This document shows, one piece after another, positions 13,359 through 47,306 of a stretch of 64,000 nucleotides of DNA (position 1 is its first letter; each line of letters opens with the position of its first letter). Both the position numbers and the translations under genes were made by a program. The stretch lies in assembly GCA_003142185.1 (NCBI GenBank), contig PLOR01000022.1:2336-66335 (forward strand), read 5' to 3'. The notes under the pieces are model-generated. The model had not been told where the DNA came from, ran no database searches, and saw only the letters and a list, made by a program, of their open reading frames with translations. Source of the DNA: Bryobacterales bacterium. Its GTDB lineage: Bacteria; Acidobacteriota; Terriglobia; Bryobacterales; Bryobacteraceae.

Positions 13359-13550
13359 CTAGGTGGCGAAGTGCTGCTTCAGCCAGATGATCTGGGAGCG
13401 GATTTGGAACCCGCAGGACTGCAGGCCCAACTCCACCTCGGCGGCGTGAATGCCCGCATGCCAGACGTAGGCGACATCGCCGGGAAACAACTCCCAAGCG
13501 GCGGACCAGTCGACCCGATCGTCGTTGCGATCTTGCCACCTTGGCGGGTC
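13359..13550 (-). pseudogene. DNA (N4/N6) methyltransferase fragment of phage/plasmid ParB-methylase type
   Basis: My minus-strand translation reads DPPRWQDRNDDRVDWSAAWELFPGDVAYVWHAGIHAAEVELGLQSCGFQIRSQIIWLKQHFAT*. It shows a DPPY-like motif plus the NDD..DW...YVWH...IRSQIIW.K pattern. A stop lies 3 codons upstream and a premature stop follows. Confidence 0.55.
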
Positions 13551-13879
13551 CGCGGGTTACCTCGGGGCGGTTGAGGACATCAAGCAAATACTGGGACCGG
13601 GAGAGTCAGCCCCCGGATTCGGTATCCTCCACGCTGCCGGTCTGGGCTCTAAACGCAGCGCAATAAGGCGGGGTTGATTCTGTAGTCGGCGTGTCACAGG
13701 AGCAACGCCGTTCGAAAGTTGATGCAAGATTTGCACTTTGCGTACGGAAGGTGCAGGCGCGTTATCCCGGCAAGTGAGTGAAAGGTCTCACTCCGTGCGC
13801 GGCATGCAACTTGCTCAGAGAAGATAGTTGGAGGTCCATATCGGAAATTCCGGCTAGAAGCCCAAAGCAGAAATGCCGG

Positions 13880-14080
13880 TGGAAATCTCCGCCAAAATGC
13901 AACACTCCAACAAGGAGAAGCGTCACATCTCCAAACAGGCGGCAGAGTGAGCCGTTCTTGCTCGAGGTGCGGGGTGTCATCAACCTCAAGGGCAAGGGCC
14001 AGGTGAAGACTTGGTTCCTGGGCTGCCGGAGCGCCGATAACACCGCTATGACCGCGGCGAGAAGGCGGAGCGCCAAGTGA
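13880..14080 (+). pseudogene. Class III nucleotidyl-cyclase C-terminal remnant
   Basis: The ORF ends ...EPFLLEVRGVINLKGKGQVKTWFLG, matching the F.FE.RG...KGKG...TYFL end of cyclase domains. Upstream residues (VEISAKMQHSNKEKRHISKQAAE) appear only in a shifted frame. Confidence 0.4.
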
Positions 14081-14550
14081 TCGTCCACGCCTGGGAAAGA
14101 AGCCCGGTGCTGATCGTCATGGCCGGCGCACGTGCCTGTGCCATCCCGCTGCACCACGTGGCGGAGACCATGCGCCCTCTCCCGATTGAGCCCGTTGCCG
14201 GGACGCCAGGTTTCGTGCGGGGCGTGTCCGTAATCCGTGGTGCGCCGACTCCCGTCGTCGACCTCAAGGCGCTCTTGGAGAACGGCGAAAACAGCGCAAC
14301 CTATGGTCGCTTTGTGACCATAAAGCTAGGAGAGCGGCGGGTGGCCATCGGCGTGGATGGCGTTGTCGGCTTGACGAACCTCGATTCGGCCCAGCTTGGA
14401 GACTTGCCGCCGATTCTGCGAGATGTCGCCGCCGACCTCATCGAGGCGATCGGCACCCGCGACGCGCAGCTCCTCGTTGTGCTTCGTGCTGCGCGCATCG
14501 TTCCCGATGAAGTCTGGACAACCCTCGCGGCGGCGGAGGCGACGCGATGA
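14077..14550 (+). CDS. cheW: CheW-like coupling protein (WspB-like position)
   Basis: 157 aa with a GTG start. The CheW pattern is present: AIPLHHVAETMRPLPIEPVAGTPGFVRGVSVIRGAPTPVVDL...VAIGVDGVVGL. The stop overlaps the cheR start. Confidence 0.85.
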   Translation: MIVHAWERSPVLIVMAGARACAIPLHHVAETMRPLPIEPVAGTPGFVRGVSVIRGAPTPVVDLKALLENGENSATYGRFVTIKLGERRVAIGVDGVVGLTNLDSAQLGDLPPILRDVAADLIEAIGTRDAQLLVVLRAARIVPDEVWTTLAAAEATR

Positions 14551-16109
14551 CGCCGGTCCTCGACCGAACCGGCCTCGATCAGTTTCGGACCATCATCGCA
14601 CGCCGTCTCGGGCTGCAGTACGAGGACGGAAAGCTCGACTACCTCGCCGAGGTCGCGCGTCGACGTATGGAGTTGGTGGGCAGCACCCGCTTCGAGTCCT
14701 ACCTCGATCATCTGATTTCTTCGCCCAAGGGCTCCGATGAGTTTCGGGCGCTCGCCGAGGAGCTCACCGTCAACGAGACGTTCTTTTTCCGCAACGCCGA
14801 CAACTTCCGGGCGTTTGCCGAGACTGTTCTTCCCGAGCGGATTCGCGCGAAGACCCGGGAGAAGCGACTTCGCATCCTCTCGGCCGGATGTGCCTCGGGT
14901 GAGGAGCCGTATTCGTTGGCGGTCCTGGTGCGCGAAGCGTTGTCCGACCTCGGAAACTGGGACGTGAAGATCATCGGCCTTGACGTCAACCCGGCGGTCC
15001 TCGCGAAGGCGGCCCAAGCCCGCTACTCCGCCTGGTCGCTTCGGGCAACCTCGGAGGACGCCAAGCGCCGCTACTTTCGGGCAGACGGTCCGGACTTCGT
15101 GCTCGCTCCCGCAATTCAGAAGATGGTGACTTTCGAGGAGCGTAACCTCGTCGATGAAGACCCTCTCTTCTGGCAGTCGCTCGCCTGCGACGTCGTCTTC
15201 TGTCGAAACGTTCTCATGTACTTCACGCCCGACAAAGCGCGTGACGTTGTGCGCCGCATCGGCGGGGCGCTGCTTCCGGGCGGATTTTTCTTCCTGGGCC
15301 ACGCGGAAACACTTCGGGGGCTCACGCAGGAGTTCCATCTTTGCCATACCCACGACACGTTCTACTACCGGCGGCGCGATGCCTCCGAGGCTGTGGTGGC
15401 AACGGCGACATGGGTAGGACTATCCAGGGAGCAAGCGGAGGATTCGCTCCCCGCAGTCGTCGAATCGACGGCATCCTGGGTCGACGTCATTCAACGAGCC
15501 TCAGAGCGAATCGCCACTCTGGCCGATGGCCGTTCTGGTTCGCCGAGCCAAGACGCGCCGCTCACCACCCCGGCCGGTCAGGCCGCTGCGACGGCTGCCC
15601 CGCGCGCGTGGGACCTGGGGCTCGTGCTCGAGGCGCTGAGGCAGGAACGCTTTTCGGACGCGCTGGAACTCATCCGCTCGTTACCCCCGGACTCCCACGA
15701 GGACCCCGACGCATTGCTCCTGCGAGCCGTCCTCCTCACGAACAATGGCAGGCTCGATGAATCCGAGGAAGTCTGCAGCCGTCTCCTCGCTGTCGATGAG
15801 CTCAACGCAGGCGCTCATTACCTCATGGCCCTCTGCCGCGAACATGCCGGCGATTCGACCGGCGCCATCGAGCACGGCCAGACCGCCATCTATCTCGACG
15901 CCGGTTTTGCAATGCCCCACCTTCACCTGGGAATCATGGCCAAACGCTCGGGCGACGCCGCGACCGCGCAGCGTGAACTTGGGCAGGCGTTGATCCTCCT
16001 CGGCCGTGAGGATGCCTCCCGACTTCTTCTGTTCGGGGGCGGGTTCTCTCGGGACACCCTCCTGCAGCTCTGTCGTACGGAGCTGCGCGCCGCTGGGGGT
16101 GAAGGATGA
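14547..16109 (+). CDS. cheR: CheR-type protein-glutamate methyltransferase with C-terminal TPR domain (WspC-like)
   Basis: 520 aa. The sequence TFFFRN...LRILSAGCASGEEPYSLAV...FCRNVLMYF is a CheR SAM-methyltransferase signature. The C-terminal 150 aa are TPR-like. Confidence 0.9.
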   Translation: MTPVLDRTGLDQFRTIIARRLGLQYEDGKLDYLAEVARRRMELVGSTRFESYLDHLISSPKGSDEFRALAEELTVNETFFFRNADNFRAFAETVLPERIRAKTREKRLRILSAGCASGEEPYSLAVLVREALSDLGNWDVKIIGLDVNPAVLAKAAQARYSAWSLRATSEDAKRRYFRADGPDFVLAPAIQKMVTFEERNLVDEDPLFWQSLACDVVFCRNVLMYFTPDKARDVVRRIGGALLPGGFFFLGHAETLRGLTQEFHLCHTHDTFYYRRRDASEAVVATATWVGLSREQAEDSLPAVVESTASWVDVIQRASERIATLADGRSGSPSQDAPLTTPAGQAAATAAPRAWDLGLVLEALRQERFSDALELIRSLPPDSHEDPDALLLRAVLLTNNGRLDESEEVCSRLLAVDELNAGAHYLMALCREHAGDSTGAIEHGQTAIYLDAGFAMPHLHLGIMAKRSGDAATAQRELGQALILLGREDASRLLLFGGGFSRDTLLQLCRTELRAAGGEG

Positions 16110-16648
16110 ACGAGCCCCAACTCGTCGAAAGCAAGGCCGCCGCGCTTCGTCAAGCGTTCGACCAGTCATTCGCCTTGCCACCGCCACCGGCGTCGCAGGA
16201 GGTCGAAGACCTCCTCGCGATTCGCGTGGCGGGCAATCCTTACGCAATTCGTCTTCGCGATATCGCCGGGATAGTAGCGGGACGCAAGGTGGCCCCCGTC
16301 CCCGCTGTCACGCTCGACCTGCTCGGTCTGGCGGGCATCCGCGGTGGTGTCGTCCCGGTGTTCGGACTGGCGTCGATCCTCGGCTACGGACAAGTCCCCG
16401 GTTCGCTCCGGTGGATGATCCTTTGCGGAGCGGAGGAACCCATCGCCCTGGCCTTCTCCGACTTCGAGGGTTACTTGCGACTTCCGAAGTCCTCTCTCCA
16501 TGCGGATGAGAACCTTCGCGCCACACGCCAATACGTGAACCAAGTCGCGAGCACGGAGGCTGAAGCTCGCGCTGTTATCGGCATTCCACTTATTGTGGCA
16601 ACAATCCGGAATCGCATCGGCCATCACCGGTTGGCAAAGGAGCAGTGA
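16106..16648 (+). CDS. cheW: Second CheW-like protein (WspD-like)
   Basis: 180 aa: YAIRLRDIAGIVAGRKVAPVPAVTLDLLGLAGIRGGVVPVF. The start overlaps the cheR stop. Confidence 0.8.
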   Translation: MNEPQLVESKAAALRQAFDQSFALPPPPASQEVEDLLAIRVAGNPYAIRLRDIAGIVAGRKVAPVPAVTLDLLGLAGIRGGVVPVFGLASILGYGQVPGSLRWMILCGAEEPIALAFSDFEGYLRLPKSSLHADENLRATRQYVNQVASTEAEARAVIGIPLIVATIRNRIGHHRLAKEQ

Positions 16649-34338: not shown

Positions 34339-36207
34339 ATGGATCGAAACACTGCGCGGCAAGACGCCTGGATACTTGGCATCAACTCCGCTTACCACGA
34401 ACCGTCGGCGTGTTTGGTCCACAACGGCAAGCTTGTGGCGGCTGCCGAGGAAGAGCGGTTTAGCCGGGTGCGGCATGGAAAGCCGGCGGATTTGAAGAAC
34501 CCGCATTGGCTGCCGGAGCAATCCATCCGGTATTGCCTCGCGGAAGCGGGTATTGAATCAGGAGCTATCACCGAGGTCGGCTACTCTTTTGCGCCCGAGT
34601 TGCGACTTGCCGGAAACGTAGCTGTCGACACCGAAGCCACTCCCGAAGGTGCGGGGACCATAGAAGGTGAGGAGCGATTCTATCGGCTTCTCCGCCAAGT
34701 GCCGCAACGGCTGAGCCTGCTGTTGGGGCAGGATGTGCGAGATCGGTTCCGCTGGATCGAGCACCACCTCTGTCACGCTGCCAGCGCGTTCTTTGTGTCT
34801 CCTTTTGAGGATGCGGCTGTTCTCTCCGTGGATGGGATCGGCGAGGCGGCCACCACTTGGCTGGGCCGGGGGCAAGGCAATCGCCTCCACTTACTCGCTG
34901 AGTTCGGGTATCCGAATTCGCTGGGTCTTCTTTGGACAAAGCTCTCCCGGTTCCTCGGCTTTGGGAACTACGGCCAATGGAAGGTCATGGCCTTGGCCGC
35001 TTACGGCGACCCGGATCGTTTCTATCCCGCCTTCCGGACTTTTGTGGAGTGCGACGACTCCGGCAATTTCGAGGTCGATGGCCGCACACTGCAGTTTCGC
35101 GTCGAGAGTTGCGCGTCGCTGGAACGGCTCTTCGGCCCTCGCTGCGGCAGGGAGGAAGAACTGGATGACCGCTTCCGCGACATCGCTGCCGCTCTCCAAC
35201 GAGTGACCAATGAGGCCCTTCTCGCTGTCGTGCGCCGGCTGAAGGCAGAGACAGACAGTAAGAATCTGTGCCTCGCGGGCGGTGTGGCGCTGAACTGCGT
35301 TGCCAACCGGTTGCTGCTGGAGGAAGGCGGCTTCGAAGACCTGTTCGTCCAGCCTGCCGCGAACGACGCAGGCACCGCGCTGGGTGCGTGCTATTACTTG
35401 TGGAACCAGGTGCTCGGCGGCGAACGCGTCGAGACAATGGTGCACTCCTACCTGGGACCGTCCTTCGCCCGGGACGCAGTGTGCTTGCTTTCGCAAGTTA
35501 ACCCGGAGGCGGTGGCCAAAGCGAGCAACCTGCCGGCACAAGTCGCCCGTCTCATCGCGCAAGGCAGCACGGTGGCGCTATTCCAGGGCCGCATGGAGTT
35601 TGGCCCGCGCGCGCTTGGCAACCGCAGTATCCTCGCCGATCCAAGGCGAGCCGATATGGTGCGGTTGCTGAATGACAAAGTGAAGCAGCGCGAGTGGTTC
35701 CGTCCATTCGCCGCCAGCGTGCTGGCGGAGCGTGCCTGCGAATGGTTTGCCATGGAACGGCGGACCATCGCCGATCGCTTCATGGTCCTCGCCTATCCTG
35801 TACGCCCGGAGAAGCTGGGCTTGATTCCCGCGGTCACTCACGTGGATGGCACCACGCGCCTCCAGACTGTGGATCGTGAGAACAACCTGGTGTTCCATCA
35901 AGTGATCGAAGAGTTCGCGCGCATCACCGGCGTGCCGCTGGTGCTGAACACATCTTTGAACGAGAGTGAACCTATCGTCTGTTCGCCGGCGGACGCGCTG
36001 CGTACTTGTCTGAAGTCGGGTGTTGACTACCTCGTGATCGAAGGTCACATCGTCGATATCGCCAGATGCCACGCGAGCGTGGCAGCCCTGCTCGACGTAA
36101 CTCCGCCGGTGCGCGATTCCATGCCGCAGCAGCAATCGTCGCCGGATTCGGCAGATGCGGAACCGGCGTTGGACGAGGATGTGGCGGCGGTCTTCATGAG
36201 CCGGTAG
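34339..36207 (+). CDS. NodU/CmcH/TobZ-family carbamoyltransferase
   Basis: 622 aa. The N-terminal ASKHA-like signature is ILGINSAYHEPSACLVHNGKLVAAAEEERFSRVRHGK, with HHLCHAASAFF further in. The C-terminal YrdC/carbamoyl-AMP domain includes FQGRMEFGPRALGNRSILADPR. Confidence 0.9.
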   Translation: MDRNTARQDAWILGINSAYHEPSACLVHNGKLVAAAEEERFSRVRHGKPADLKNPHWLPEQSIRYCLAEAGIESGAITEVGYSFAPELRLAGNVAVDTEATPEGAGTIEGEERFYRLLRQVPQRLSLLLGQDVRDRFRWIEHHLCHAASAFFVSPFEDAAVLSVDGIGEAATTWLGRGQGNRLHLLAEFGYPNSLGLLWTKLSRFLGFGNYGQWKVMALAAYGDPDRFYPAFRTFVECDDSGNFEVDGRTLQFRVESCASLERLFGPRCGREEELDDRFRDIAAALQRVTNEALLAVVRRLKAETDSKNLCLAGGVALNCVANRLLLEEGGFEDLFVQPAANDAGTALGACYYLWNQVLGGERVETMVHSYLGPSFARDAVCLLSQVNPEAVAKASNLPAQVARLIAQGSTVALFQGRMEFGPRALGNRSILADPRRADMVRLLNDKVKQREWFRPFAASVLAERACEWFAMERRTIADRFMVLAYPVRPEKLGLIPAVTHVDGTTRLQTVDRENNLVFHQVIEEFARITGVPLVLNTSLNESEPIVCSPADALRTCLKSGVDYLVIEGHIVDIARCHASVAALLDVTPPVRDSMPQQQSSPDSADAEPALDEDVAAVFMSR

Positions 36208-36213
36208 GCTCCT

Positions 36214-37389
36214 GTGCCGGAAGACACAGAAATGATCGATCTGGTTCCGGCGGACGGATACGTTGTTTCTCCCCTCGACTTCGCCGCACGCTTTTCGACG
36301 AACCTGTCCGGCGTGGAACGAATCTTCCTGGAGCAAAACGCGAGTCTCTTTGGCACCGAGGCGGAGATTCCTCCCACGCTGCGCACACCTTGGATTGCCG
36401 CCAGCGGCTCTGCCGGCGAAAACGCAGATCGGATCGTAGCTCGTCCCTCGGGCGTACGGTCCGCCGTATGGGATGCCGAACAAATCCAGTTCAAGGGATG
36501 CCGCCCGGCGCCTGAGGCCGCAGACTTCCCTTTCGAGCACGTGGAGTTCGGAGGCGACAGGATTATCTCGACGCGCGTCCCGTTCGGAGTCATGACGGCA
36601 GAGGCTGTCAGTCGCGAGTTGCTGGGTCACTGCTTCTGCAAGACTTATGGCATTCCGTGCGCCACCACTCCGATGTGTGTATTCGGTTATTCCAGCGGAC
36701 CCGCCGCAAACCGTTTCTGTTTGGTGTTGAAACTGGCAGGTGGAACGCGGGCGGAGAAGTTTCTCGGCACCAAACCGTTGCCCGTGTCGGAGCTTGTGTC
36801 GCCGTCGGCGGACAGCGCAGTCTTCACTGGTTCGGAGGTCGTAATGGAGGGCCTGAACACGGTGTGGCACGCGGACCAGAAGGGACGGTGGCTTGCCGAG
36901 TTGCATTTTCGCGGCGCATTTCGCGGCCTTCTAAACAACAACGTCGGCAACGATGTCGTCCAGTTCCTACCCAGCGGGAAGCATCGTTTCCTTCTACGCG
37001 ACTTCGATTCGTTCCAACTCATTTCGCTTCCATTGGCAGCATCGCGCGAGTTCCTGAGCGCGTTCGCCGTGCAGTGCGTGGTGGAAGTTGTCAAGGGAAG
37101 CTTGCCGATTCTGGATTATGTCTCCACGCAGACAGGTGAGGACGCGCAGCAGGTTTTGCCGCGGATCGGCGCCGTCTACCGGCGGAAAAGCTCACTCTGG
37201 AATTCCTACTTCCGCTATGCCCGGCTCAAGGCGCGGGCACTCGCATGGAGCGAGGCGGAATTCGTATCCGCTACCGAACGTGCGTTCGAATCCATGGCGT
37301 TTCTGGAGGCCTCTTGTTCGGTGATTCTGAGTGACTACGCCCTGGAGCGCCTTCGGCGGCGCCGGCCTCAACCGTACGTGTTTCACTGA
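36214..37389 (+). CDS. Hypothetical protein, possibly kinase-fold
   Basis: 391-aa ORF, 7 bp after the carbamoyltransferase stop. The segment NNNVGNDVVQFLPSGKHRFLLRDFDSF resembles a catalytic-loop plus DFD metal-binding motif of Kdo/aminoglycoside-kinase folds. This reading is tentative. Confidence 0.5.
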   Translation: MPEDTEMIDLVPADGYVVSPLDFAARFSTNLSGVERIFLEQNASLFGTEAEIPPTLRTPWIAASGSAGENADRIVARPSGVRSAVWDAEQIQFKGCRPAPEAADFPFEHVEFGGDRIISTRVPFGVMTAEAVSRELLGHCFCKTYGIPCATTPMCVFGYSSGPAANRFCLVLKLAGGTRAEKFLGTKPLPVSELVSPSADSAVFTGSEVVMEGLNTVWHADQKGRWLAELHFRGAFRGLLNNNVGNDVVQFLPSGKHRFLLRDFDSFQLISLPLAASREFLSAFAVQCVVEVVKGSLPILDYVSTQTGEDAQQVLPRIGAVYRRKSSLWNSYFRYARLKARALAWSEAEFVSATERAFESMAFLEASCSVILSDYALERLRRRRPQPYVFH

Positions 37390-37405
37390 GCCAGGTTTGA
37401 CTGAG

Positions 37406-38608
37406 ATGCCGCACGACCACGCTGACCACTCACCCGCTGATCGTATTCTGCGTGGCGGAAGGATCTACACGCAGGATCCGTCTCGTCCATGGGCCGAAGC
37501 TTTGGCTGTCTCCGGCAATCGCATATCAGTCATCGGTTCCAATGCCGATGTCGACAGTCTCGCCGGGCCCCATACCCAGATGATCGAACTGAACGGCCGG
37601 TTCGTCATGCCGGGCTTCAATGACGCCCACATCCATTTCACTCCCTCCATGCTTCCCCTTCTGCGCCAGTGCGGGATCACAACCGCACAGACCATTACCG
37701 AGGTGGCTGACTTGCCGGAGTACGTCCGGCTGGCCGGCGAAGGGGCCTTGACCGTGCGGCTGGAAGTCCGTTTGCCGTTGCAAACATGGAGCGAGTTTCC
37801 ACGCTACCGCGCACTGGCCGCGCAGACTGGCGGAATGGTCGAGGTCATCGGGCTGAAGGCCTATGCCGATGGGATGCTGCGGAAACGTACTGCGTTCTTG
37901 CTGGAGCCTTACAGCGGCTCTGCCTCTGGCCGCGGTTCGCTAACCAAAGCGGCGGCGGACACCGCGGTCTTCGACAGAATGCTGGACGGTGCTGTCTCGG
38001 TCGGTGCCGACGTGAGCACTCATGCCATCGGAGACGCCGCGACTCGGTTCGTGTTGGGGCACTACGAGAACCTGATCGCCCGGCACAAACTGGCAGGCCA
38101 TAGGCTTCGAGTCATCCACGCGTCTCTCGTTTCACCAGTCGATTTCTCGAGGTTTGGCGCGTCGAACATCATTGCGGAAGTCAATCCCTATCACGCCATG
38201 GCCATCCCGTGGCTGAAGAACATAGTGGGTGAGGAGCGGACGCGTTGGGCCTTCGCTTTTCGGACACTCAAGGCCAACGGCGCTCGTCTGTGCTTCGGTT
38301 CCGACTATCCCGGACCCGATGGCCGGCCGGAGTTCCCACTCAATCCTCTATCCGGAATTCAGGCCACCGTTCTCCACGAGAATCCGCAGGAGCGATTGAG
38401 TGTCCAAGAAGGCTTGGCGGCTTACACGATCGGTTCCGCCTACGCCAGCCGGCACGAAGATCTCAAAGGCGCGTTGCAAGCCGCAATGGTGGCGGATCTG
38501 ATCGTACTTTCGGAGAATCCGCTCGAAGTCGCCGCCGACCGGATCGATTCCATCCGTGTCATCCAGACGTGGATGAACGGGAACATCGTGTTTCAGGGGC
38601 CTGCCTAG
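37406..38608 (+). CDS. Metal-dependent amidohydrolase (amidohydrolase_3 / YtcJ-like)
   Basis: Start at MPHDHADH. The sequence ILRGGRIYTQD...AVSGNRISVIGSN...IELNGRFVMPGFNDAHIHF contains the HxH metal motif, and the C-terminal end DLIVLSENPL is typical of the family. Confidence 0.8.
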   Translation: MPHDHADHSPADRILRGGRIYTQDPSRPWAEALAVSGNRISVIGSNADVDSLAGPHTQMIELNGRFVMPGFNDAHIHFTPSMLPLLRQCGITTAQTITEVADLPEYVRLAGEGALTVRLEVRLPLQTWSEFPRYRALAAQTGGMVEVIGLKAYADGMLRKRTAFLLEPYSGSASGRGSLTKAAADTAVFDRMLDGAVSVGADVSTHAIGDAATRFVLGHYENLIARHKLAGHRLRVIHASLVSPVDFSRFGASNIIAEVNPYHAMAIPWLKNIVGEERTRWAFAFRTLKANGARLCFGSDYPGPDGRPEFPLNPLSGIQATVLHENPQERLSVQEGLAAYTIGSAYASRHEDLKGALQAAMVADLIVLSENPLEVAADRIDSIRVIQTWMNGNIVFQGPA

Positions 38609-38612
38609 CTTC

Positions 38613-39995
38613 TCACAGCTTGGCTTCGCCCAACTCGACCGCCCTCTGCTTCAGATAACCGATGATTTCGACCAGTTGAGGAACTTGTGTGCCGCTCCCC
38701 TCGCGCGCCTGTTGCAGCATCTCGAGGTTGGCGATCGTCGTTTGCACGTGCCACGCAAACTTTGCCGCGGCCAGCGTCCTGGGCAACACGGCGTTCGCGC
38801 TCTTCCAATCGCTCCCGATTGCGGCGAGCTCCAGCACGGTTGCGAGATCCCAGTAGTCGCTGGATGCGGCGCCGCCGCGGCGTGCGACGGCAAAGTTGAC
38901 CAGGGGTAACATCTGCTCGGCCTGCTTCAGATCCCCCTTTTCGATCATCAGGCTGATCGCGTTCACCCCGGGATAGTAGTCTCTGGGGTCCGATTCGAAA
39001 CCCTTTTTGTAAGCGCCGATGGCATCGTCCAGCGCGGCAGTTGCCATCAGGTTCTTGGCCGCTTTCAGCTCCTTGTATCGGTCCTTGTGAACCCTCCCCA
39101 GAATTCCCAACGTCTCCGGGTCCGGGCCGCGTTCCTTCAGCAGTTTGTCCAGGATCGAGATAGCTCTGTCGCGGTCGCCCGGCAGCTTCCGGCGATTGAG
39201 CGCCAGCGCCCACTGCTGTCTGACGACCACGTAGTCCTTGAGGTAGTCGGGGAAAGCGTCGCAGAGTCGGACCATGAGATCCCAAGCGCTCACATCGCGA
39301 TAGGAAAGCATGAGGTCGACGAGCACGCCCGGTTGGGCCGCCTTCAGGTTGCCCAGGCTCTCCTGCACCTGAAGCAGCGCGGCCGCCCGTTGCGCGTCCG
39401 TGGGTCCGCCGCGCGCTTCCGCCAGCTTCAGGCGGAACTCGTCTTCGTGCTTCACGCGGTCCTGAAACGCTTCCGTGACCTCGTGGGGCAGATCGATGCC
39501 GGGGAAATCGGGGATCAATTGAAACAGCGGACTGTCCTTGACCGCTGGTCCCTCCATGACCGCCAGCAGGCGGGCGGTAATGGCCGCCTTGAGCGCGGAG
39601 GCCGCTTCCGCGGTTAGCTTTCCGTTTTCGAGCGTGTAGCCGATGGCGCGCACCATGGCCACGTCGAACGGAAGCGGGTGAATATTGGCGAAGATGGGAA
39701 CCGTCGTGAACGGCCTTGCCGCGTGGCGGATGCCAAGCTCGTAAAACACGTTCGGGTTGGCCAGTGTGAGGTCGGCGACTACGTACTCGGAAAGCAGCAA
39801 CCGGGCGAACATCGGAGCATGAATGATTCCGCCCGTCCGCTCCTCATCGCCCCGTATTGCATCGAGTCCCGCCGCTAGGATCGCCGGTTTGATGGCGTCG
39901 TTGTAAACCTGGTCAAAATCGATCTCGACGCCGGTGGAAGGGTCTTGCTTCTTCTCAAACGGCATGTCCACGAAACAGAGTGCTTGTAGGCTCAT
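38613..39995 (-). CDS. NDT/SLOG/TIR-like Rossmannoid N-domain fused to a helical-repeat (TPR-like; possibly MAP3K-TRAF-binding/DUF4071-like) body
   Basis: 460 aa. The N-terminal pattern is beta1 CFVDMPF, then LDAIRGDE, then SEYVVADLTLANPNVFYELGIRHAARPFTTVPI. This resembles the aD..A.l....D.GT.fElGyA pattern of nucleoside 2-deoxyribosyltransferase / SLOG-type nucleotide-binding folds. Residues from about 200 to 460 are helical repeats. Confidence 0.55.
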   Translation of the reverse strand: MSLQALCFVDMPFEKKQDPSTGVEIDFDQVYNDAIKPAILAAGLDAIRGDEERTGGIIHAPMFARLLLSEYVVADLTLANPNVFYELGIRHAARPFTTVPIFANIHPLPFDVAMVRAIGYTLENGKLTAEAASALKAAITARLLAVMEGPAVKDSPLFQLIPDFPGIDLPHEVTEAFQDRVKHEDEFRLKLAEARGGPTDAQRAAALLQVQESLGNLKAAQPGVLVDLMLSYRDVSAWDLMVRLCDAFPDYLKDYVVVRQQWALALNRRKLPGDRDRAISILDKLLKERGPDPETLGILGRVHKDRYKELKAAKNLMATAALDDAIGAYKKGFESDPRDYYPGVNAISLMIEKGDLKQAEQMLPLVNFAVARRGGAASSDYWDLATVLELAAIGSDWKSANAVLPRTLAAAKFAWHVQTTIANLEMLQQAREGSGTQVPQLVEIIGYLKQRAVELGEAKL

Positions 39996-40124
39996 TGTGC
40001 CAGTGCTCCAGGGCTTTGCGGATCGATTGGATCCGGGTGCCCTCGTTGGCCGGGTAGGTTCCCGGCTCGTTAGTGATTCCGTAAATCAAGACGGTGGGGG
40101 CCATGTCGTTGAACTTACCCTATC

Positions 40125-41255
40125 CTAGTTCTTATCCGTACCCCTCTTACGAAAACTCTTCACAAATCCGTCGATTTTCGTGGGATCAGAGAGCATTTCC
40201 ATGGCGTTTAATACTCTGCGGACAAGATCTTTCCGATACGTCTTGACCACCTTCTCTTTACTAGCGTACAGCTGCCGTATGTATTCGTCGGGAGGGAACC
40301 ACTGCGTCATCGCGATCTCAATCTTCTCTTCAGAATCGCACTTTTCCAGCCTGATGGGCAGCAGACACTGGCCGTCCCGCGTTCTTCTGCGCAGGATGGT
40401 GAACAGCTCCTTCTTTTGTATGAAATCCGACGCATGGAAGCGCGGGCTCATCAGCGCCAGCGCCAGGTCACAGTGCCGAAGCGCAAACTTGATCTCTTCT
40501 TCCCAACGGAGGCCCGTCTGGATGCCCTGTTCCCAGAAATCGTCCTGTCCCGGCACATCATCGGCCCTCTTCGGCGGCGGCTTCCGATCCCACCAAAGGA
40601 AAACGTGCTCTTTACCGAGAGCCGCTTCTGTCGCAGCGCGAAGATCCTCAAAATATGTGTCGTCAACCCTAGCCCCCTTCGGGACTATGTCTTTATGTGC
40701 GTAACAGACAAACACGGTTGTGAGCCATCTCAGGTTCGTCAGCGTTTTCCCAAGACCCTCGACGAACTCCCCGAGCAGCGCCCGCGCTGCCGGAACCCGG
40801 TTCTCTTTCAGCCGGTCCAGGACGCGCCAGTGATGGCGGACCAACCGTCGGATATAAGCCTTGTGCTGAGGAGGCGACCATCCTGGAAAAGTCAGATAAT
40901 CCAACAATCCCAGCTTTGCGTCCTTCGCCTCGGCGTCAATGCCCGCTACGATACTGTTGTAAGCCTCAAGGGTCGAGCGGGCGGTCGTGCCGGATAGTGT
41001 TGCGGCGGAGGAAGCGAGCAGATTCACCATCGTTCGCTCCAGATGGTAAAGGTCCATCAGACTCTTGCGGAGTTGGAGCTTTTCGTCCAGCCAGAGATTC
41101 AGTTTTTGCTCGGTGTAGGGGTCGGGTTTCGAAAAGTCGGTAAGTGCCTTAGTGCATTCGACTAGCTGCTCGCCTAGCAATTTAACGCACGTGTTGCAAA
41201 CCCCAACAAAACGCTTGCGGTCCTGAATGAATGCTTGGCTAGCCCGCGAAGTCAC
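40125..41255 (-). CDS. TIR-domain protein with unassigned helical N-terminal domain
   Basis: 376 aa with a GTG start (uncertain). The C-terminal half reads VFVCYAHKD...HVFLWWDRK...RWEEEIKFALRHCDLALALMSPRFHASDFIQKKELFTIL...LLPIRLEKCD. This gives the TIR betaA, the D/W box and the S-x-F-x3-E glutamate. Local GC is about 50%. Confidence 0.75.
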   Translation of the reverse strand: MTSRASQAFIQDRKRFVGVCNTCVKLLGEQLVECTKALTDFSKPDPYTEQKLNLWLDEKLQLRKSLMDLYHLERTMVNLLASSAATLSGTTARSTLEAYNSIVAGIDAEAKDAKLGLLDYLTFPGWSPPQHKAYIRRLVRHHWRVLDRLKENRVPAARALLGEFVEGLGKTLTNLRWLTTVFVCYAHKDIVPKGARVDDTYFEDLRAATEAALGKEHVFLWWDRKPPPKRADDVPGQDDFWEQGIQTGLRWEEEIKFALRHCDLALALMSPRFHASDFIQKKELFTILRRRTRDGQCLLPIRLEKCDSEEKIEIAMTQWFPPDEYIRQLYASKEKVVKTYRKDLVRRVLNAMEMLSDPTKIDGFVKSFRKRGTDKN

Positions 41256-41333
41256 AGTGATACAGCGCCTTTCTCCCTGCTTCCGCGCGCGCCTCTATGC
41301 GAGCCGAGCCCGCTATGGCGCGTGCCGTTTCGC

Positions 41334-42563
41334 TTATTCCTCGGGTTCTTGACCGCTCAGCCAGCTTAGTTGAAGCGCGTCGCGATAAACACGATCCATC
41401 AGGTCCATCTTCTCAATCAATGTACTCTTCAGTTCGTCCAGGCGAAATATCTCCCGGAGTTTCAGATAGAGTTTCGAAAGGGCGTCACCCGCGATGATGT
41501 ATACAGTCGGGTCTTCCAAGCCGGTGGCAAGCATCTGACGCAGCGACAGCACCTTGCTTTGCTTGAAGAGTTTTTTCTTCTTCGGATCGACCATCTGTCG
41601 TATGGTAAGGTCGATCAGCTTGTTTAGTGTCACCAGCGAGTGCCAGCGAGCTCTCACCATTTCACAAACGTCAAGCAACCCAGGCACGAAATACGACGCC
41701 GGATCGACATCGGAGTTTTCACATACGCACAGAATCGAACGGCGAGACATGCAAACGAAGAGTCGCGCGTCCAGATTCACGCTGAAAAGTCCCGGGATGC
41801 CAACCGGAGTGGGTGGCTCAACGTACGCAGGTTCCAGGAAGAGTTGGTCAGCGACCGAACGGAACAGGATTGGAGCTATCGATGGTTCGTACCTCCGAAT
41901 CTTAATCATCTTGGTGCGAGCCGGGTCGTCGGCGGCATCGCCGTGACCGCAGAATGCCTCTGCGATTTCACCATCGACTGCAGCCACCGTAACTAGCCAA
42001 GGGCTTTGGCCTTCTCTGCCGGGCTCGATCAAGTCGTACTTCACGTCCAAACGGTCGAGGGAGTGTTCTGTGCAGAGATTAGTGACCAGTTCCTCAAAGC
42101 GGTCGTAAAGGCTCTTACGGCCAGAACCTTCACCTTCTAAGTACATTGGCTCCGGGGCCACTGTCGATGCCCCCGGCCTCTGCGAAGTCAGGTTCAGAAG
42201 CTTCAGGATGTCAACGGTGGAGAGTTTCTGCGTGGGCTTGCCGGTTACGTCGAGAGTCAGGCAACAGGTTGCACCACTCGGAAAGATCCGAATCAGCGAA
42301 CCGAAGGAAAACTCCCGTCCGGCAACGGTCCCGCTGCGCTTGGAGGATTCAAACCAGGCGGAATCTGCCCTTAGCGACAAGTGTGGGACGATGCTCTCGC
42401 GACTGCTGGGAGTGCCCATGTGCTCTGTCCCTCTTGCTTTGGGCAAGTCGGGCGGGTAGACGGCTTTGCCGTTCTTAAAGGCGGGCACAAACGAGTAGAT
42501 GAAGTAAACCGTGACTCTATGACAGGAAAATGGGACGGTCAGTGTCGCTTTGTCTTCAGTCAT
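41334..42563 (-). CDS. Hypothetical 409-aa protein, no recognisable domain
   Basis: Long ORF at about 50% GC with a GAGG 9 nt upstream of the ATG. It starts 15 bp after the ABC ATPase stop. No TM segment and no catalytic motif was recognised by eye. Confidence 0.6.
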   Translation of the reverse strand: MTEDKATLTVPFSCHRVTVYFIYSFVPAFKNGKAVYPPDLPKARGTEHMGTPSSRESIVPHLSLRADSAWFESSKRSGTVAGREFSFGSLIRIFPSGATCCLTLDVTGKPTQKLSTVDILKLLNLTSQRPGASTVAPEPMYLEGEGSGRKSLYDRFEELVTNLCTEHSLDRLDVKYDLIEPGREGQSPWLVTVAAVDGEIAEAFCGHGDAADDPARTKMIKIRRYEPSIAPILFRSVADQLFLEPAYVEPPTPVGIPGLFSVNLDARLFVCMSRRSILCVCENSDVDPASYFVPGLLDVCEMVRARWHSLVTLNKLIDLTIRQMVDPKKKKLFKQSKVLSLRQMLATGLEDPTVYIIAGDALSKLYLKLREIFRLDELKSTLIEKMDLMDRVYRDALQLSWLSGQEPEE

Positions 42564-42578: not shown

Positions 42579-43361
42579 TCATGCGGATTTCTCCAGCGCC
42601 TCGCGGCGGAAGATTTCCAACGCTTGTTTCTTCATCGAGGCGAATGCCTCGCTGCCCATTTGAGTCAGTTCCTTCTGGGCCGGCAGTTTGCTCTCCAGCA
42701 CCGCGGCGACGCTGGCCGGGCGCTTGGTCAGGAATACCGTCCGCTCGCCCAGGTAGATCGCTTCGTCGATATCGTGCGAGACCAGCAAAATGGTAACCCC
42801 GGTCGCTTCCCAGATCTGCAGCACCTTCTCATACAGGCTAAGGTTGGTCTGATAGTCGAGGGCGGAGAACGGCTCGTCCATGATAAGAATGTCGGGGTCG
42901 AGGATCAACGCGCGCAGAATGGACGTCAGTTGCGCCTGCCCGCCCGACAGCGCATAGGTGTAAGCGCCCAGATCAATCCGGAACTGGAAACGGGCCACCA
43001 CCGCTTCCACCTTGCTCATCCGCTCGGGCTTCGAAACGCCGCGGATCCGCAGCGGGAAGGCGATGTTCTCGGCGACCGTAAGCCACGGCATCAGGTATCC
43101 GCGGTAGTCCTGAAACACGTAGCCGACGCGCGGGCGGGATGTGCCGCCATTCATCTTGACGCTCCCCTCGTCCAGGCTTTCCACGCCGACGATGACGTTC
43201 AGCAGAGTGGTCTTGCCGCAGCCGTTCGGCCCGAAGAACGTCAAAAACTCGCCTTTGCGGACGTCCAGCGAGAAGTCGCGCAGGACCACGTTGCGCTTCT
43301 GACCCTCGCCAAACGCCTTCGAGGCGTGCTCGATCTCGATGTATAGGGGACGATCGCTCAC
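42579..43361 (-). CDS. ABC transporter ATP-binding protein (NitT/TauT family)
   Basis: GTG start at 43361 overlaps the permease stop (GTGA). Motifs: Walker A GPNGCGKTT, signature LSGGQAQ, Walker B ILIMDEPFSALD. The longer ORF 42579..44093 overlaps the permease out of frame and is rejected. Confidence 0.9.
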   Translation of the reverse strand: MSDRPLYIEIEHASKAFGEGQKRNVVLRDFSLDVRKGEFLTFFGPNGCGKTTLLNVIVGVESLDEGSVKMNGGTSRPRVGYVFQDYRGYLMPWLTVAENIAFPLRIRGVSKPERMSKVEAVVARFQFRIDLGAYTYALSGGQAQLTSILRALILDPDILIMDEPFSALDYQTNLSLYEKVLQIWEATGVTILLVSHDIDEAIYLGERTVFLTKRPASVAAVLESKLPAQKELTQMGSEAFASMKKQALEIFRREALEKSA

Positions 43362-44170
43362 TTTCCCGTCCAGAACACGATTCGCGTCTCTGCCCACACG
43401 AAGCCGCGGTTGATTAAGTAGCCCAGCAACCCAATTAATACGAGAACGGCATACAACTTCTCCGTGTCGTTCACGGTATAGGCATCGAATACCCGCTGGC
43501 CGAGCCCCAATTGCGTGCCGATAAACATCTCGCTGACGATGACCACCACCAGGCAGAGCGACAGCGAGGTCCGCATGCCTGACAGCGTCTGGGGCAAAGC
43601 TTCGAAAAAGACCACCCAACGGAAGACTTGCCATTCGGACGCCCCGAACACCCGCGCTGCCCGCAGCCGCGTCTCTTTGGCCTGCAGCGCGCCGTAGGCG
43701 CAGTTCAGAATGACGACAAAGAGCGCGGCCGAAAACGCCATCGCGATCTTGGCGCTGTCTCCGATGCCGAAGAGCAGCAGGAAAAGCGGAAAGAGCGCCG
43801 TCACCGGAAGCGAGCGGAAGAAGTCGAGCGTAGGGTAGCTGGCCGCATAGACCTTGCGGGAATTCCCGATAAACAGCCCAAACGGAACGCCGATCAGGCA
43901 TCCCAGAATGTAGCCGCAGCCCCATCGCCAGGCGGTGGCGCCGATGTCGGAAGTCAAGTGCTCGTGGAGAAACAGCCCCACCAATCGCCTGAACGTAGCG
44001 GTCGGGGATGGAACCAATAGAGGGGGAACCAACTTCAAGCCTGTGACCAGATACCACAACGCCAGACACAGCAGGGGGAGAGCGAAGCCCCACACCCCGA
44101 TCCGCACACCGGCGCTACGTCCCGCGGGCGGAGCATCCTTTGTCCTGATCTCTGGAGTTGGCATTGGCAC
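43358..44170 (-). CDS. ABC transporter permease (NitT/TauT family)
   Basis: 270 aa with six hydrophobic segments and the EAA-like loop ...AARVFGASEWQVFRWVVFFEALP. Confidence 0.85.
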   Translation of the reverse strand: MPMPTPEIRTKDAPPAGRSAGVRIGVWGFALPLLCLALWYLVTGLKLVPPLLVPSPTATFRRLVGLFLHEHLTSDIGATAWRWGCGYILGCLIGVPFGLFIGNSRKVYAASYPTLDFFRSLPVTALFPLFLLLFGIGDSAKIAMAFSAALFVVILNCAYGALQAKETRLRAARVFGASEWQVFRWVVFFEALPQTLSGMRTSLSLCLVVVIVSEMFIGTQLGLGQRVFDAYTVNDTEKLYAVLVLIGLLGYLINRGFVWAETRIVFWTGK

Positions 44171-44176
44171 GGAAGA

Positions 44177-45187
44177 TCACTTTGCCGTGGGAGTGGTTCT
44201 GGCGGCATCCGCCTGTCGCAGAAAGCTGAGATCCAAAACGTCGGTATAAGCAGGCACCGGCTTGTTGTCGAGGCCTTTCTGTGTCGCCTTCGCCCACTGG
44301 CCGGTGCTGGCGAAAACGTTCAACAGCCCCTCGTCCGCCTGCACGTTCAGCTCATATTCGCCCCAGATGGCGGTGAGAACCGACGGATCCATTTGCATCT
44401 CCTTGGCCAGAATCGCAATGGCCTCCTCACGGTGGTCCTTGACGAACGCCTCAGCGCGGATCAGGGCCTTCAGAAACGACCGGATTCGAGCCGGCTCGGC
44501 CTTGGCAAAATCGCCCCGCACCGCCAGCAATCCATACGCGGTGTAAATCCGCGGATCGTTGAACTGCACCAGCTTGCCGTCGAGCGCCTGCTCGACGTTG
44601 TAGCGGTATGGCTGCCAGACCGATCCCGCGGGGATGCTCCCATTCAGCACCGAGGCCTGAATGCTGGGTGCCGTCAGGCTGAGAAACTGGATCTTCTTTC
44701 GGTCCAGCTTGTAGAAATCGACGAAAAGGTCCGCGAACCGGTGAGAAGTCGTGCCGGGAACCAGAGCCAGGGTCTTGCCCTCCAGATCCTTTGGCGTTCG
44801 GATGCCCTTGTCCCGCCGCGCCATGATCGCGTCATCGTGCTTCCGCATGACGCTGGCGATCACCTTGACGTCGGCCCCCTCCTGGAACTTCACAAAGGCG
44901 ACGTTGGTCTCCACGATGACGCCGAAATTCAGGTCGCCACTAACCACCGCATCCATCGCCACTTTGCCCGTTTGCAGATAATTGGGCCGGACGTCCAGAC
45001 CTTCCGCCTGGAAGAAGCCTTTCTGCTGCGCGATGATCGGCAGCATCGAGATATTCGTGGGGCCACCCCACACGAGTGGCTTCAAAGCAGATCCCTTGGA
45101 GGCGTAGCGATAGATCGCGATGCCGACAGCCAGAACGACCACCGCAGTGGCAACCACCCACGTCAGAGTACGGCGTTTCGCCATCAT
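44177..45187 (-). CDS. ABC transporter substrate-binding protein (NMT1/ThiY/SsuA-like)
   Basis: Start at MMAKRR (ATG 45187), preceded by GGAGGAG. It has an N-terminal anchor helix and then a periplasmic-binding fold (PIIAQQKGFFQAEGLDVRPNYLQTGKVAMDAVVSGDLNFG). Confidence 0.8.
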   Translation of the reverse strand: MMAKRRTLTWVVATAVVVLAVGIAIYRYASKGSALKPLVWGGPTNISMLPIIAQQKGFFQAEGLDVRPNYLQTGKVAMDAVVSGDLNFGVIVETNVAFVKFQEGADVKVIASVMRKHDDAIMARRDKGIRTPKDLEGKTLALVPGTTSHRFADLFVDFYKLDRKKIQFLSLTAPSIQASVLNGSIPAGSVWQPYRYNVEQALDGKLVQFNDPRIYTAYGLLAVRGDFAKAEPARIRSFLKALIRAEAFVKDHREEAIAILAKEMQMDPSVLTAIWGEYELNVQADEGLLNVFASTGQWAKATQKGLDNKPVPAYTDVLDLSFLRQADAARTTPTAK

Positions 45188-45568
45188 CCCAGACTCTCCT
45201 CCGAAAGGTTCAAGGACTTCCAGAATACCGCAAAAGCGATTTCCCAAGAGGGACTTGAGAATGCCCTGAAGTTCTGTCGGCCCAGATGGTCAAACGCTCC
45301 TCCCGGGCAGAGGATCAATCCGGACATCGCCTTCGCGCAAAGCTCGCGCCTTCAATCACCACTCCGGCAAATTTCCCAATCCGCTGTCCCCATAGGCCTT
45401 ACACCATCTTCTGCGTACTCCGGATGCCGCGCCGCCCGCCTTCCTGTGCCACAGTGAGATTGGGAAGCAAAGCGGGACTGGCACGAATCTCGCTGCTCTT
45501 GCGAAACTTCGTGCCAGTACCCGGTTTGCTTGGGTGCCCCGCTTCGTTTTTCGCCCGGTTCACTGGCT

Positions 45569-45677: not shown

Positions 45678-47306
45678 TCACCCCATGCGCAGCAAATCGG
45701 GGCTCGTATGGGGAAGAAATGAGGCGCCCACAAACTCGTCCATGTAGCCGGCGAGATCGGCGAGGTCCACGTAGGTCACGCGCGTAAGATAGGTGGCGAT
45801 TTCATCGCGGAACTCGCGCGAGAGCAGGCTCAGCGCGGCGCCTTCGAGCGATCCGTTATCGATGTAACCGTAGCGTCCGAGCGGGATGTCCGGCAGCAGC
45901 CCGATTCCCACCGCGGCCGGCAGGTTGAGATAGCGGCCGAAGTTGCCCGAGACATACGCTCTCTCTATGGAGGGGCCGCCCGGGCCGAGCGAATCGACCA
46001 GCGAGCGTATGCCCGCGAAGATTGCCGCTTTGGCGCGAATGAGACTCGCCAGGTCCCGCTCCCAGAGCGCCACGCGCTGGTCGGCGGAGAGTGCAATCGC
46101 ACCGCCCCACTTGCCTTCCATGCGGCGTTCCCCGGGCACGCGCGCGGTTAGCCTGCCGCCGCGGTCAATCCAGCCGGCGCGGAACAGGGCGTCGGCCAGC
46201 GCGATCAACCCCGACCCGCACAGGCCGCGGACGCGTCCACCGCCAATCACGGAAAGCTCCATCGCGCCACTTTCCCCATCGATGGCGGCGCCGTCCACCG
46301 CGCCACGGTCCGCGCGCATGCCGCAGCGTATCCCGCCGCCTTCAAACGCCGGGCCCGCACTGCACGCGCACGCCAGCGCGAAATCGGCATTGCCGAAGAC
46401 GATCTCGCCGTTCGTCCCCAGGTCCACGTAGAGGGCCGTCTCAGTCGCGCGTGAGAAGCCGGCGCGCACCGCCCCGGCCAGTATGTCGCCGCCGACCCAT
46501 CCGCCCGCGCCTGGAACGCTGTCGACCGGCGCACCGCGGCCGGGCCATCCCAGGTTCGCCGCGTCCACCGGGCGAAAGGCCAAGGCGCGCGGCTGCGATG
46601 GTACGCGGCGAATCCCCGAGGGATCCTCGCCCAACAGCAGGTGGATCATGGTGACGTTGCCCGCCACCACGTAGCCGCGGATGCGCCCTGGATCAAGGCC
46701 TCCAGCCGCCGCTTCGCCGATCATCGAAACCACAGCCAGGCGAATCGAGGATGCCAGTTCGCCCAGCCCGCCCTTCTCCGCCGCGACGATGCGGGAGATC
46801 ACGTCGGCGCCTTTCGAGATCTGCGGATTGTAAGCCCCGGCCTCGCCCACGATCACGCCATCGGACAGACGGATCAGCAGCAGCCGCAATGTGGTGGTGC
46901 CGATATCGAGAGCCACGCCCAGATCCTCCGGCTCGCGGCATTCCACCAGCGGCGCCAGCTCGAGCGGCCAGGGAGCCCACGCCGAAAGAGCATCCGTACC
47001 GATGTACCGGTCGCTCGAGACCAGCTTGGGTAGTTGCGCTTCCACCAGCGGCTCGACGGTCAGCGGTCCATGCACGGGCGTGAGGCACGCCAGCACTTGC
47101 GGGAAGCCGGATTCGCGCCGCAGAACGCGGTACTCGGGGACCTGCCCTTCGAGAATGCGTACCAGGCAGCGCCCGCACGCGCCTCGTCCTCCGCATTCCG
47201 CGCGCACCGGTTCGCCGGCCAACTCGGCGGCGCGCAGGATGCTCGATCCCTCCGCGACGCTGGTGGAGCGGCCGGAGGGTGAGAACCGGACTGGGTGCGA
47301 AGGCAT
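45678..47306 (-). CDS. Reductive activator of the corrinoid Fe-S protein (RACo; 2Fe-2S ferredoxin + ASKHA/DUF4445 ATPase)
   Basis: 542 aa. The N-terminal plant-type ferredoxin motif is CGGRGACGRCLV, followed by the ASKHA fold (LDIGTTTL...VDLGTNGEIV). Confidence 0.85.
   Translation of the reverse strand: MPSHPVRFSPSGRSTSVAEGSSILRAAELAGEPVRAECGGRGACGRCLVRILEGQVPEYRVLRRESGFPQVLACLTPVHGPLTVEPLVEAQLPKLVSSDRYIGTDALSAWAPWPLELAPLVECREPEDLGVALDIGTTTLRLLLIRLSDGVIVGEAGAYNPQISKGADVISRIVAAEKGGLGELASSIRLAVVSMIGEAAAGGLDPGRIRGYVVAGNVTMIHLLLGEDPSGIRRVPSQPRALAFRPVDAANLGWPGRGAPVDSVPGAGGWVGGDILAGAVRAGFSRATETALYVDLGTNGEIVFGNADFALACACSAGPAFEGGGIRCGMRADRGAVDGAAIDGESGAMELSVIGGGRVRGLCGSGLIALADALFRAGWIDRGGRLTARVPGERRMEGKWGGAIALSADQRVALWERDLASLIRAKAAIFAGIRSLVDSLGPGGPSIERAYVSGNFGRYLNLPAAVGIGLLPDIPLGRYGYIDNGSLEGAALSLLSREFRDEIATYLTRVTYVDLADLAGYMDEFVGASFLPHTSPDLLRMG

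Follow-up and report, generated by a model that had tools for sequence, protein, structure and literature searches.

A TIR gene and its orphan partner accompany a NitT/TauT-type importer operon, next to an ASK1-like TPR-S gene, in a Bryobacterales contig

TIR systems related to the locus

TIR enzymes have a central place in the immunity of bacteria, plants and animals, and what triggers them is often unknown. Two types of described system resemble the locus discussed here, a group of three genes (A, B and C) in a 64,000-nucleotide stretch of a Bryobacterales contig (PLOR01000022.1) which is referred to below as the window. In Thoeris, a TIR protein is encoded beside a partner, ThsA, of the SIR2/SLOG or Macro/transmembrane (TM) type. 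The TPR-S or ASK-signalosome-type systems are built on a helical scaffold (PF20308). Burroughs and Aravind reportedly predicted by computation, in the Journal of Bacteriology in 2020, that TPR-S is a sensor of NAD-derived signals which was later incorporated into the ASK signalosome of animals; they are also said to have predicted the pairing of a TIR/NDT-like head with TPR-S. We know of no experimental test of these conflict systems, which to our knowledge are computational predictions.

Genes A (42563..41334, 409 aa), B (41255..40125, 376 aa) and C (39995..38613, 460 aa) all lie on the minus strand and are separated by 78 bp (A/B) and 129 bp (B/C). An open reading frame check returned exactly the coordinates, strand and gaps of the original prediction, which was made from the letters of the window and took the trio for one three-gene, Thoeris-like immune system. 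The interval is best read as the junction of two units, one made of an ABC (ATP-binding cassette) importer with A and B, and the other of C, which was inserted separately. The original prediction missed the strongest signal, which is that A-B always occurs with the ABC importer genes next to it.

As far as the libraries and literature searched show, neither the A-B pair nor its coupling to an ABC importer has been described before; a literature search on TIR and ABC transporter systems found no relevant description. The combination of a TIR/NDT-like head with TPR-S is not new, as it had reportedly been predicted before.

Pairing of A and B and their link to an ABC importer

The three genes upstream of A encode a substrate-binding protein (SBP; 45247..44177, minus strand; Pfam NMT1 with 96.8 bits, and NMT1_2), a permease (44170..43358, minus strand; BPD_transp_1) and a 260-aa ATPase (43361..42579, minus strand; ABC_tran), whose start was checked. 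The GTG start of the ATPase gene overlaps the permease stop by 4 bp, and 15 bp separate the ATPase stop from the start of A. The combination of an NMT1-type SBP, BPD_transp_1 and ABC_tran in one operon, all with Pfam scores above their cutoffs, identifies an importer of the NitT/TauT type. The SBP has an NMT1/SsuA-like fold and matches SsuA/TauA in the PDB (E about 1e-9); it carries a single hydrophobic segment (aa 26-44), an N-terminal membrane anchor, and its real start is probably the Met-Met at about 45187. The NCBIfam model SsuA_fam matches the SBP under its cutoff, as do SaoP and TauC, the models nearest to the permease; indeed, all three importer proteins score under the cutoffs of the substrate-specific NCBIfam equivalogs. 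The operon thus resembles SsuABC and TauABC in its NMT1-type SBP, its BPD_transp_1 permease, its ABC_tran ATPase and their order, but it carries two extra genes, A and B, which are not known from characterised transporters. Pfam also confirms the flanks given earlier for the trio, the ABC transporter operon on one side and a convergent amidohydrolase gene on the other.

About 25 loci with A homologues (31-100% identity) were compared, which correspond to ~11 independent neighbourhoods in hosts with a GC content of 0.33-0.66. A partner gene directly follows A at every A-family locus for which downstream DNA is available (17 partners aligned); at loci where the start calls of both genes can be trusted, the two overlap by up to 4 bp or lie up to about 100 bp apart. 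TIR_2 matches the partner protein in 16 of the 17 cases. This gene arrangement shows A and B to be an obligate pair, often translationally coupled.

The association with the importer is also strict. NitT/TauT ABC genes are adjacent to A in all ten independent contexts (10/10) with flanks available, and ATPase orthologues adjoin A in every locus examined. The commonest order is SBP-permease-ATPase-A-B, with a gap of -4 to 52 bp between a co-directional ATPase gene and A (when the start of A is reliably called). The link is kept in rearranged loci: the order is A-partner-SBP-permease-ATPase in L021, the genes are convergent in L022, and L004 has another gene order with an inserted methyltransferase gene. 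It even reaches very distant A-like proteins, in L029 and in L032, where a permease gene is directly followed by the A-like gene. The similarity of the ATPase to the window copy also tracks that of A (rho 0.74, p 0.003). Because A is always linked to the importer, even in rearranged loci and in the case of distant A-like proteins, these comparisons show that the conserved unit is SBP-permease-ATPase-A-B, usually a five-gene operon in which A and B stand at the 3' end behind the NitT/TauT importer genes.

What follows A is more variable than what precedes it: the downstream partner is a TIR protein, a protein with no recognisable domain, or a TM-bearing protein. A separate observation concerns L029 (7001-13733 of a 3.1-Mb contig), where the A-like gene is followed by genes for a 244-aa helical protein and a 169-aa membrane protein, and then by an SBP-permease-ATPase set and a gene for a B12-binding radical-SAM enzyme; this interval contains no TIR gene.

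A and B could also be a selfish pair, of the toxin-antitoxin or abortive-infection kind, which rides the ABC operon without being coupled to it, C and the other TPR-S genes being unrelated cargo of one integration hotspot. The composition of the genes is consistent with this idea: the GC content and the GC content at third codon positions (GC3) are 0.55 and 0.64-0.66 for A and B, compared to 0.60 and 0.75-0.81 for the ABC genes (0.62 and 0.78 for C). Toxin-antitoxin and defence genes lie nearby, and the slot behind B turns over by gains and deletions which leave relics. However, the NitT/TauT adjacency outlasts inversion and reordering and extends to very distant A-like proteins, and, by a rough estimate, the probability of finding it by chance in ~12 contexts is negligible. 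In L004 and L022 the ABC genes are more divergent, which hints at replacement by another NitT/TauT paralogue. We consider an uncoupled hitch-hiking pair to be very unlikely.

Gene B, a TIR protein with a helical N-terminal domain

B passes the Pfam TIR_2 model (PF13676) with 35.4 bits, for a gathering score of 28, over aa 242-319. The TIR domain as a whole covers aa 180 to about 325 (40281..40718, minus strand), with the motifs vFvsYA..D, lWwD and S..F(I)...E(L). The catalytic glutamate, E283 (in FIQKKEL, codon 40407-40409), is kept in the alignment of 16/16 TIR-type homologues. The C-terminal TIR domain with an NADase-type glutamate which had been recognised in the middle gene is thus confirmed, and B is a genuine TIR protein which looks catalytically competent. 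Its N-terminal domain, of about 178 aa, is helical and matches no family. A Bestrophin-like match in this domain (E 0.008-0.045) was rejected, as it is far under the cutoff and there is no TM segment.

The likeness of B to Thoeris lies in the presence of a TIR domain with a conserved glutamate beside a partner gene, in a weak match to the PADLOC ThsB1 model (E 2.5e-4, 18 bits; the match to FxsC is weak too) and in a plausible logic of signal generation. Pfam ThsB_TIR matches only one of the 17 B-family members. Unlike in Thoeris, neither A nor C is a partner of the ThsA type, since SIR2, SLOG and Macro domains give no match in either protein at E <= 1 in Pfam, PADLOC and NCBIfam. In addition, B has a unique 178-aa helical N-terminal domain, its partner has no known fold, and the pair is obligatorily tied to an ABC importer. 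No system-level model of PADLOC v2 spans A, B and C; B and C match generic TIR models and A matches none. A check of the trio against the named systems of Pfam, NCBIfam and PADLOC gave no match, in line with the earlier statement that the partners typical of Thoeris, CBASS, STING, pAgo, STAND and retron systems are not present here.

Gene A, a member of an orphan superfamily

The first gene had been described as having no nameable domain, and this still holds: A has no match in Pfam, NCBIfam or PADLOC, and the fold searches are empty as well. Its structural model (predicted local distance difference test, pLDDT, 86; pTM 0.89) has a predicted β-rich α/β N-terminal domain followed by a C-terminal bundle of long helices, for which Foldseek found no significant match in the PDB and BFVD. 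A likeness to the cytosolic domain of CorA (prob 0.5-0.66, TM 0.2-0.34) was rejected as insufficient. Sequence searches of the PDB with A and with B gave no match.

A is rare. Its homologues number 39 among the 5.8e9 sequences searched, and a scan of GTDB species genomes, which used a narrowed A alignment, found it at one locus. A profile search returned 337 clusters in 1.84 billion representatives and, because of this, A belongs to an uncharacterised superfamily. Ten distant A-like proteins have no Pfam domains. The role of effector proposed for A in the original prediction is not supported, as nothing marks A as an effector.

Gene C, an ASK1-like TPR-S protein

The body of C (aa about 138-435) matches MAP3K_TRAF_bd (PF13281, 149 bits) and TPR-S (PF20308, 89 bits), both above cutoff, which gives a name to the helical-repeat body noticed earlier. 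This body and the central regulatory region of human ASK1 are homologous: E is about 1e-18 with the single sequence and about 1e-25 with a profile (5ulm/8qgy). Similarly, the best PDB match of the AlphaFold model of C (pLDDT 83) in Foldseek is ASK1 (8qgy, E 7.8e-9, 485 columns, including head and TPR). Of the model-based fold searches, which had been suggested earlier, the one with C thus found ASK1, and the one with A found no significant fold in PDB or BFVD.

The head of C (aa 1-150) is a predicted five-strand β-α-β Rossmannoid domain, with a pLDDT of 43-74 around its motif. It matches the PADLOC "Effector/TIR" model (E 3.5e-7), and aligns only weakly with the NDT-family protein Rcl (Rcl/DNPH1, E 1.6) and, co-linearly, with the N-terminal domain of ASK1; a Pfam search with the head alone gave no match. 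The residues D75, N80, N82, E86, R90 and H91 are invariant in the head of the C family, and the motif VADLTLANPNVFYELGIRHA contains the glutamate E86 (codon 39738-39740), where ASK1 has a histidine. These features would put the head in the TIR-DrHyd-SLOG class (background in PMC9503650). The predicted topology fits the Rossmannoid head proposed from the letters, and a relation to the TIR/NDT class is probable; the SLOG part of that proposal is not supported, since no SLOG/LOG-type profile of Pfam or NCBIfam matches C or its head with E <= 1.

The N-terminal region of human ASK1 (MAP3K5), i.e., the thioredoxin-binding domain and the central regulatory region, is therefore the best match of C in both sequence and fold, over the head and the TPR body. 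C differs from ASK1 in that it has no kinase, PH or SAM part, and in the replacement of the YHLG of ASK1 by YELG. Because C keeps the glutamate of YELG where ASK1 has a histidine, the bacterial head may be catalytic.

C appears to be a self-contained member of a widespread bacterial ASK1-like family, with a sensor-like body. Its family has >1,700 matches, compared to 39 for A, and is therefore >40x larger. Relatives of C at 65-75% identity are solo genes which lie among unrelated housekeeping or toxin-antitoxin genes.

Turnover of the slot behind B

C occurs in one sub-lineage of the window clade (the window/L005, L007, L011 and L017), and a C-like gene, 44% identical, is found in L019/L020. 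C is not present in the syntenic loci L001, L006 and L013, nor in L010, L018, L021, L022 and L004. In L013 (6223-9159), the slot is occupied instead by genes for an α/β-hydrolase (GxSxG, 311 aa), a TPR-S-trypsin protein (533 aa) and a RyR-domain protein (172 aa). The slot of L008 (3793-5329) holds the α/β-hydrolase and TPR-S-trypsin genes, the contig ending within the latter. The protease part of this module weakly matches the RT-Protease models of PADLOC; the hydrolase/TPR-S-trypsin/RyR combination is not a PADLOC system.

The same module has left traces in the window. A tblastn search with the L013 protein found, in the B-C spacer (40003..40077, minus strand), a 25-codon relic of the C-terminus of TPR-S-trypsin with 68% identity (E 8e-5), whose frame reads ..PGTYPANEGTRIQSIRKALEHWH. 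Deletion remnants of the old module are also seen in L001, L007 and L009, and the trypsin remnants of L001 and L007 are larger than the relic of the window. The relic shows that an older effector module was deleted before C arrived or when it did. Because the slot contains a trypsin relic and a series of decay stages while A-B is intact throughout, C is a facultative, later arrival in a decaying slot with fast turnover.

In L019/L020, a TPR-S-patatin gene lies directly 3' of the C-like gene. The protein encoded in L019 (13724-16393) has 889 aa: TPR-S lies at its N-terminus and a patatin phospholipase domain in the centre, and its C-terminal tail is hydrophobic; the C-like gene of the same locus is 57% identical to an Agrobacterium plasmid copy. 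TPR-S genes have thus been gained beside A-B at least three times (the TPR-S-trypsin of the window clade, C, and the C-like and TPR-S-patatin genes of L019), with three different effector heads, for which the chance is ~1e-4 to 1e-6 (rough estimate).

The original prediction had B as the producer of a signal, C as its receiver, through a SLOG/NDT-like head or through the TPR body, and A as the effector of a single Thoeris-like system. A, B and C are indeed co-directional and closely spaced, B is a TIR protein with a catalytic glutamate, and a C-like gene recurs after A-B in L019/L020. C-family genes also lie beside TIR genes on plasmids, and TPR-S is said to have been predicted as a sensor of NAD-derived signals. 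However, C is missing both from close syntenic loci (L001, L006, L013) and from distant ones (L010, L018, L021, L022), it replaced an earlier, decayed module, and its relatives live alone in a family far larger than that of A. Moreover, A is coupled to the ABC genes rather than to C, and SIR2, SLOG and Macro domains were not detected. Looking for co-occurrence of homologues, as had been recommended, therefore gave a split answer: A always comes with its partner gene, and most A-B loci lack C, even closely related syntenic ones. A single three-gene system is very unlikely, and the trio can no longer be described as one system.

The part of this proposal in which B signals to C fares better. Because TPR-S proteins repeatedly settle beside TIR genes (at least three times beside A-B, and in the C family of plasmids), C can probably read the product of B when both are present. 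Such signalling is plausible but not needed, and A-B does not depend on C. Compared with the TPR-S/ASK-signalosome-type systems, C has the same PF20308 and PF13281 body, a head of the TIR/DrHyd class and a TIR gene as neighbour, and fusions of TPR-S with trypsin or patatin occur in sister loci; the locus differs in that C is a late add-on, and in that the TIR protein next to it, B, is large, has two domains and is tied to A and to an importer. The live turnover of ASK1-like TPR-S genes beside a TIR gene offers a concrete pairing for the prediction that TPR-S responds to NAD signals, and it bears on the bacterial roots of the regulatory module of animal ASK1.

Possible roles of the importer-linked pair

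We tentatively favor a reading in which A gates the cleavage of NAD+ by B in response to a cue linked to the importer. B would be an NAD+-cleaving TIR enzyme, restrained by its own helical N-terminal domain and by A. A would be a sensing or regulatory partner answering to substrate flux, to an imported molecule or to a perturbation of the transporter. Activation would then lead to NAD+ depletion, to an NAD-derived signal or to both, and so to a stress or anti-invader response; C and other TPR-S proteins, when present, may read the product of B. The observations which we counted for an immune or stress role are the TIR chemistry, the presence of TM-bearing or other partners in the position of the TIR protein, the low GC3 of A and B, the rare and patchy distribution of A, and the neighbouring defence-type, HicAB and transposase genes. 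The firm attachment of a TIR protein, with a partner whose fold is novel, to a solute importer in very different bacteria points to an unexplored input route for the activation of TIR enzymes, or else to a non-immune use of TIR chemistry.

Several points weigh against this reading. The NADase activity of B, the interaction between A and B and any phage phenotype are all things we infer. No ligand-binding or catalytic fold can be recognised in A and, because of this, its role is a guess. A comparison by hhalign of the N-terminal domain of B with the non-TIR partners of L021, L029 and L030 detected no homology and so "effector swapping" here refers to gene position only. Many of the loci come from one peat-bog lineage, and the observations therefore count as ~11 independent ones rather than about 25. 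A and the distant A-like proteins have no match among PLSDB plasmids, and A has none among IMG/VR viral contigs. The only match of an Rfam scan for a riboswitch or leader which would name the substrate of the importer is a tRNA in L010. Lastly, the operon which contains A-B resembles one for nutrient uptake, and in some loci carbamoyltransferase and amidohydrolase genes lie next to it; such a context is as compatible with a metabolic role as with an immune one.

In the window, these genes lie on the plus strand beyond C: a NodU-like carbamoyltransferase (34339-36207; Pfam/NCBIfam), an orphan of 391 aa without Pfam or NCBIfam family, called hyp391 (36214-37389), and an Amidohydro_3 gene (37331-38608; Pfam/NCBIfam) convergent with C. 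The carbamoyltransferase-hyp391 pair accompanies ABC-A-B in three arrangements: in the window clade, in L018, where the cluster is co-directional (11890-16268), and in the rearranged L021 (7524-10652). Amidohydro_3 joins it in the window clade and in L018, and L021 has only the pair. This recurrence hints at a pathway for the substrate of the importer.

A and B might thus be accessory or regulatory to an uptake and catabolism pathway made of the importer, the carbamoyltransferase, hyp391 and the amidohydrolase, and have no immune function. The TIR domain of B would then act as an N-glycoside hydrolase, with a nucleoside-like compound brought in by the importer as its substrate, or would adjust NAD+ to import, and A would be a transporter-associated regulator. 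The strict and deep link of the A superfamily to the importer, including operonic coupling, fits this proposal, as do the co-occurrence of the carbamoyltransferase-hyp391 pair and the chromosomal location of A, which was found neither on plasmids nor in viral contigs. The class formed by TIR, DrHyd and SLOG enzymes acts on a variety of nucleotides (PMC9503650, section 3.3.3). On the contrary, the characterised bacterial TIR domains are NAD+ specialists (PMC9503650). The carbamoyltransferase cluster is not present in L003, L009, L010, L019, L004 and L022, and the variation of the partner domain (TIR, TM-bearing or none) would be unusual for a dedicated enzyme. The repeated adjacency of TPR-S effector genes and known defence genes, the rare and patchy distribution of A and the low GC3 also argue against it. 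We regard such a metabolic role as rather unlikely. The single three-gene system and the pure hitch-hiker fit the data less well than this metabolic role and the gating of B by A.

A further version makes the importer an integral, working part of the TIR-based response. It would bring in the cue sensed by A (e.g., a metabolite which signals danger or the lysis of kin, or a molecule derived from NAD), and A would then switch on the TIR domain of B; alternatively, A-B would guard the importer against interference by an invader. C, TPR-S-trypsin and TPR-S-patatin would be exchangeable, optional downstream readers. This version is unlikely. If it were true, it would be an importer-coupled immune or signalling architecture without described precedent, centred on a protein of novel fold, and close to categorically new.

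Relatives of C on plasmids

Sixty-nine plasmid records contain a C-family gene, at 27-43% identity. In four of the five plasmids sampled, this gene has a DUF4231 gene and between one and three small TIR genes as neighbours. The cassette is found in the IncHI1B/IncP plasmid NZ_OW969876.1 of Citrobacter freundii (L036, 5013-8209), in pVH3 of Vibrio harveyi (L037), in Agrobacterium (L033) and in Rhizobium (L034). It shares with the window the C family, the head motif VADxxxxNxNxxYELGxRHA and an adjacent TIR gene, but the TIR neighbour in the window is B and not a small stand-alone TIR protein. DUF4231 and small ThsB-like TIR genes are not present in the 64-kb window, where tblastn with the cassette proteins matches C only. 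These plasmid cassettes agree with the role of NAD-signal sensor which Burroughs and Aravind reportedly predicted for TPR-S.

PADLOC has no model for the TPR-S protein of the cassette (a gene annotated with a "TRAFs-binding domain"), and a literature search on DUF4231 with TIR and phage, and on bacterial TRAF-binding-domain systems, found no relevant description. As it is carried, among others, by clinical conjugative IncHI1B/IncP plasmids, the cassette is a candidate defence system which could easily be tested.

In L033 (1457-5868) and L034 (1459-5821), a conserved operon with two TIR genes is divergent from the C-family gene. It encodes a carbohydrate kinase, a 467-aa TIR protein, an HhH-GPD DNA glycosylase/lyase, a QueC-like 7-cyano-7-deazaguanine synthase and a small TIR protein. 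The mixing of TIR genes with deazaguanine and base-excision genes is unusual.

Other genes near the A-B loci

A bSEFIR gene, a ThsB-like gene, DUF4231, HicAB and transposase genes occur near A-B in some loci. In L003 (1792-2952), the bSEFIR gene (PADLOC E 1.7e-26) lies beside transposases, a few kb upstream of ABC-A-B. At a similar distance upstream of ABC-A-B, L018 (2189-4793) has a ThsB-like TIR gene (PDC-M50B/ThsB1) and a DUF4231-containing gene of 635 aa.

A promoter and terminator scan of 38.3-45.7 kb of the window gave counts which are not above those of shuffled sequence. The contigs related to the window are environmental metagenome assemblies, and homologues of C are named Acidobacteriia. 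Upstream of the importer operon and on the same strand lies a gene for the corrinoid activase RACo (45678-47306, minus strand), in a region followed upstream to about 56000. In the syntenic L001 (1-5308), genes of carbon monoxide dehydrogenase/acetyl-CoA synthase (CODH/ACS; CdhC and CdhD) precede RACo. Because RACo is found in the window and is preceded by CODH/ACS genes in L001, the host of the window probably carries a Wood-Ljungdahl cluster.

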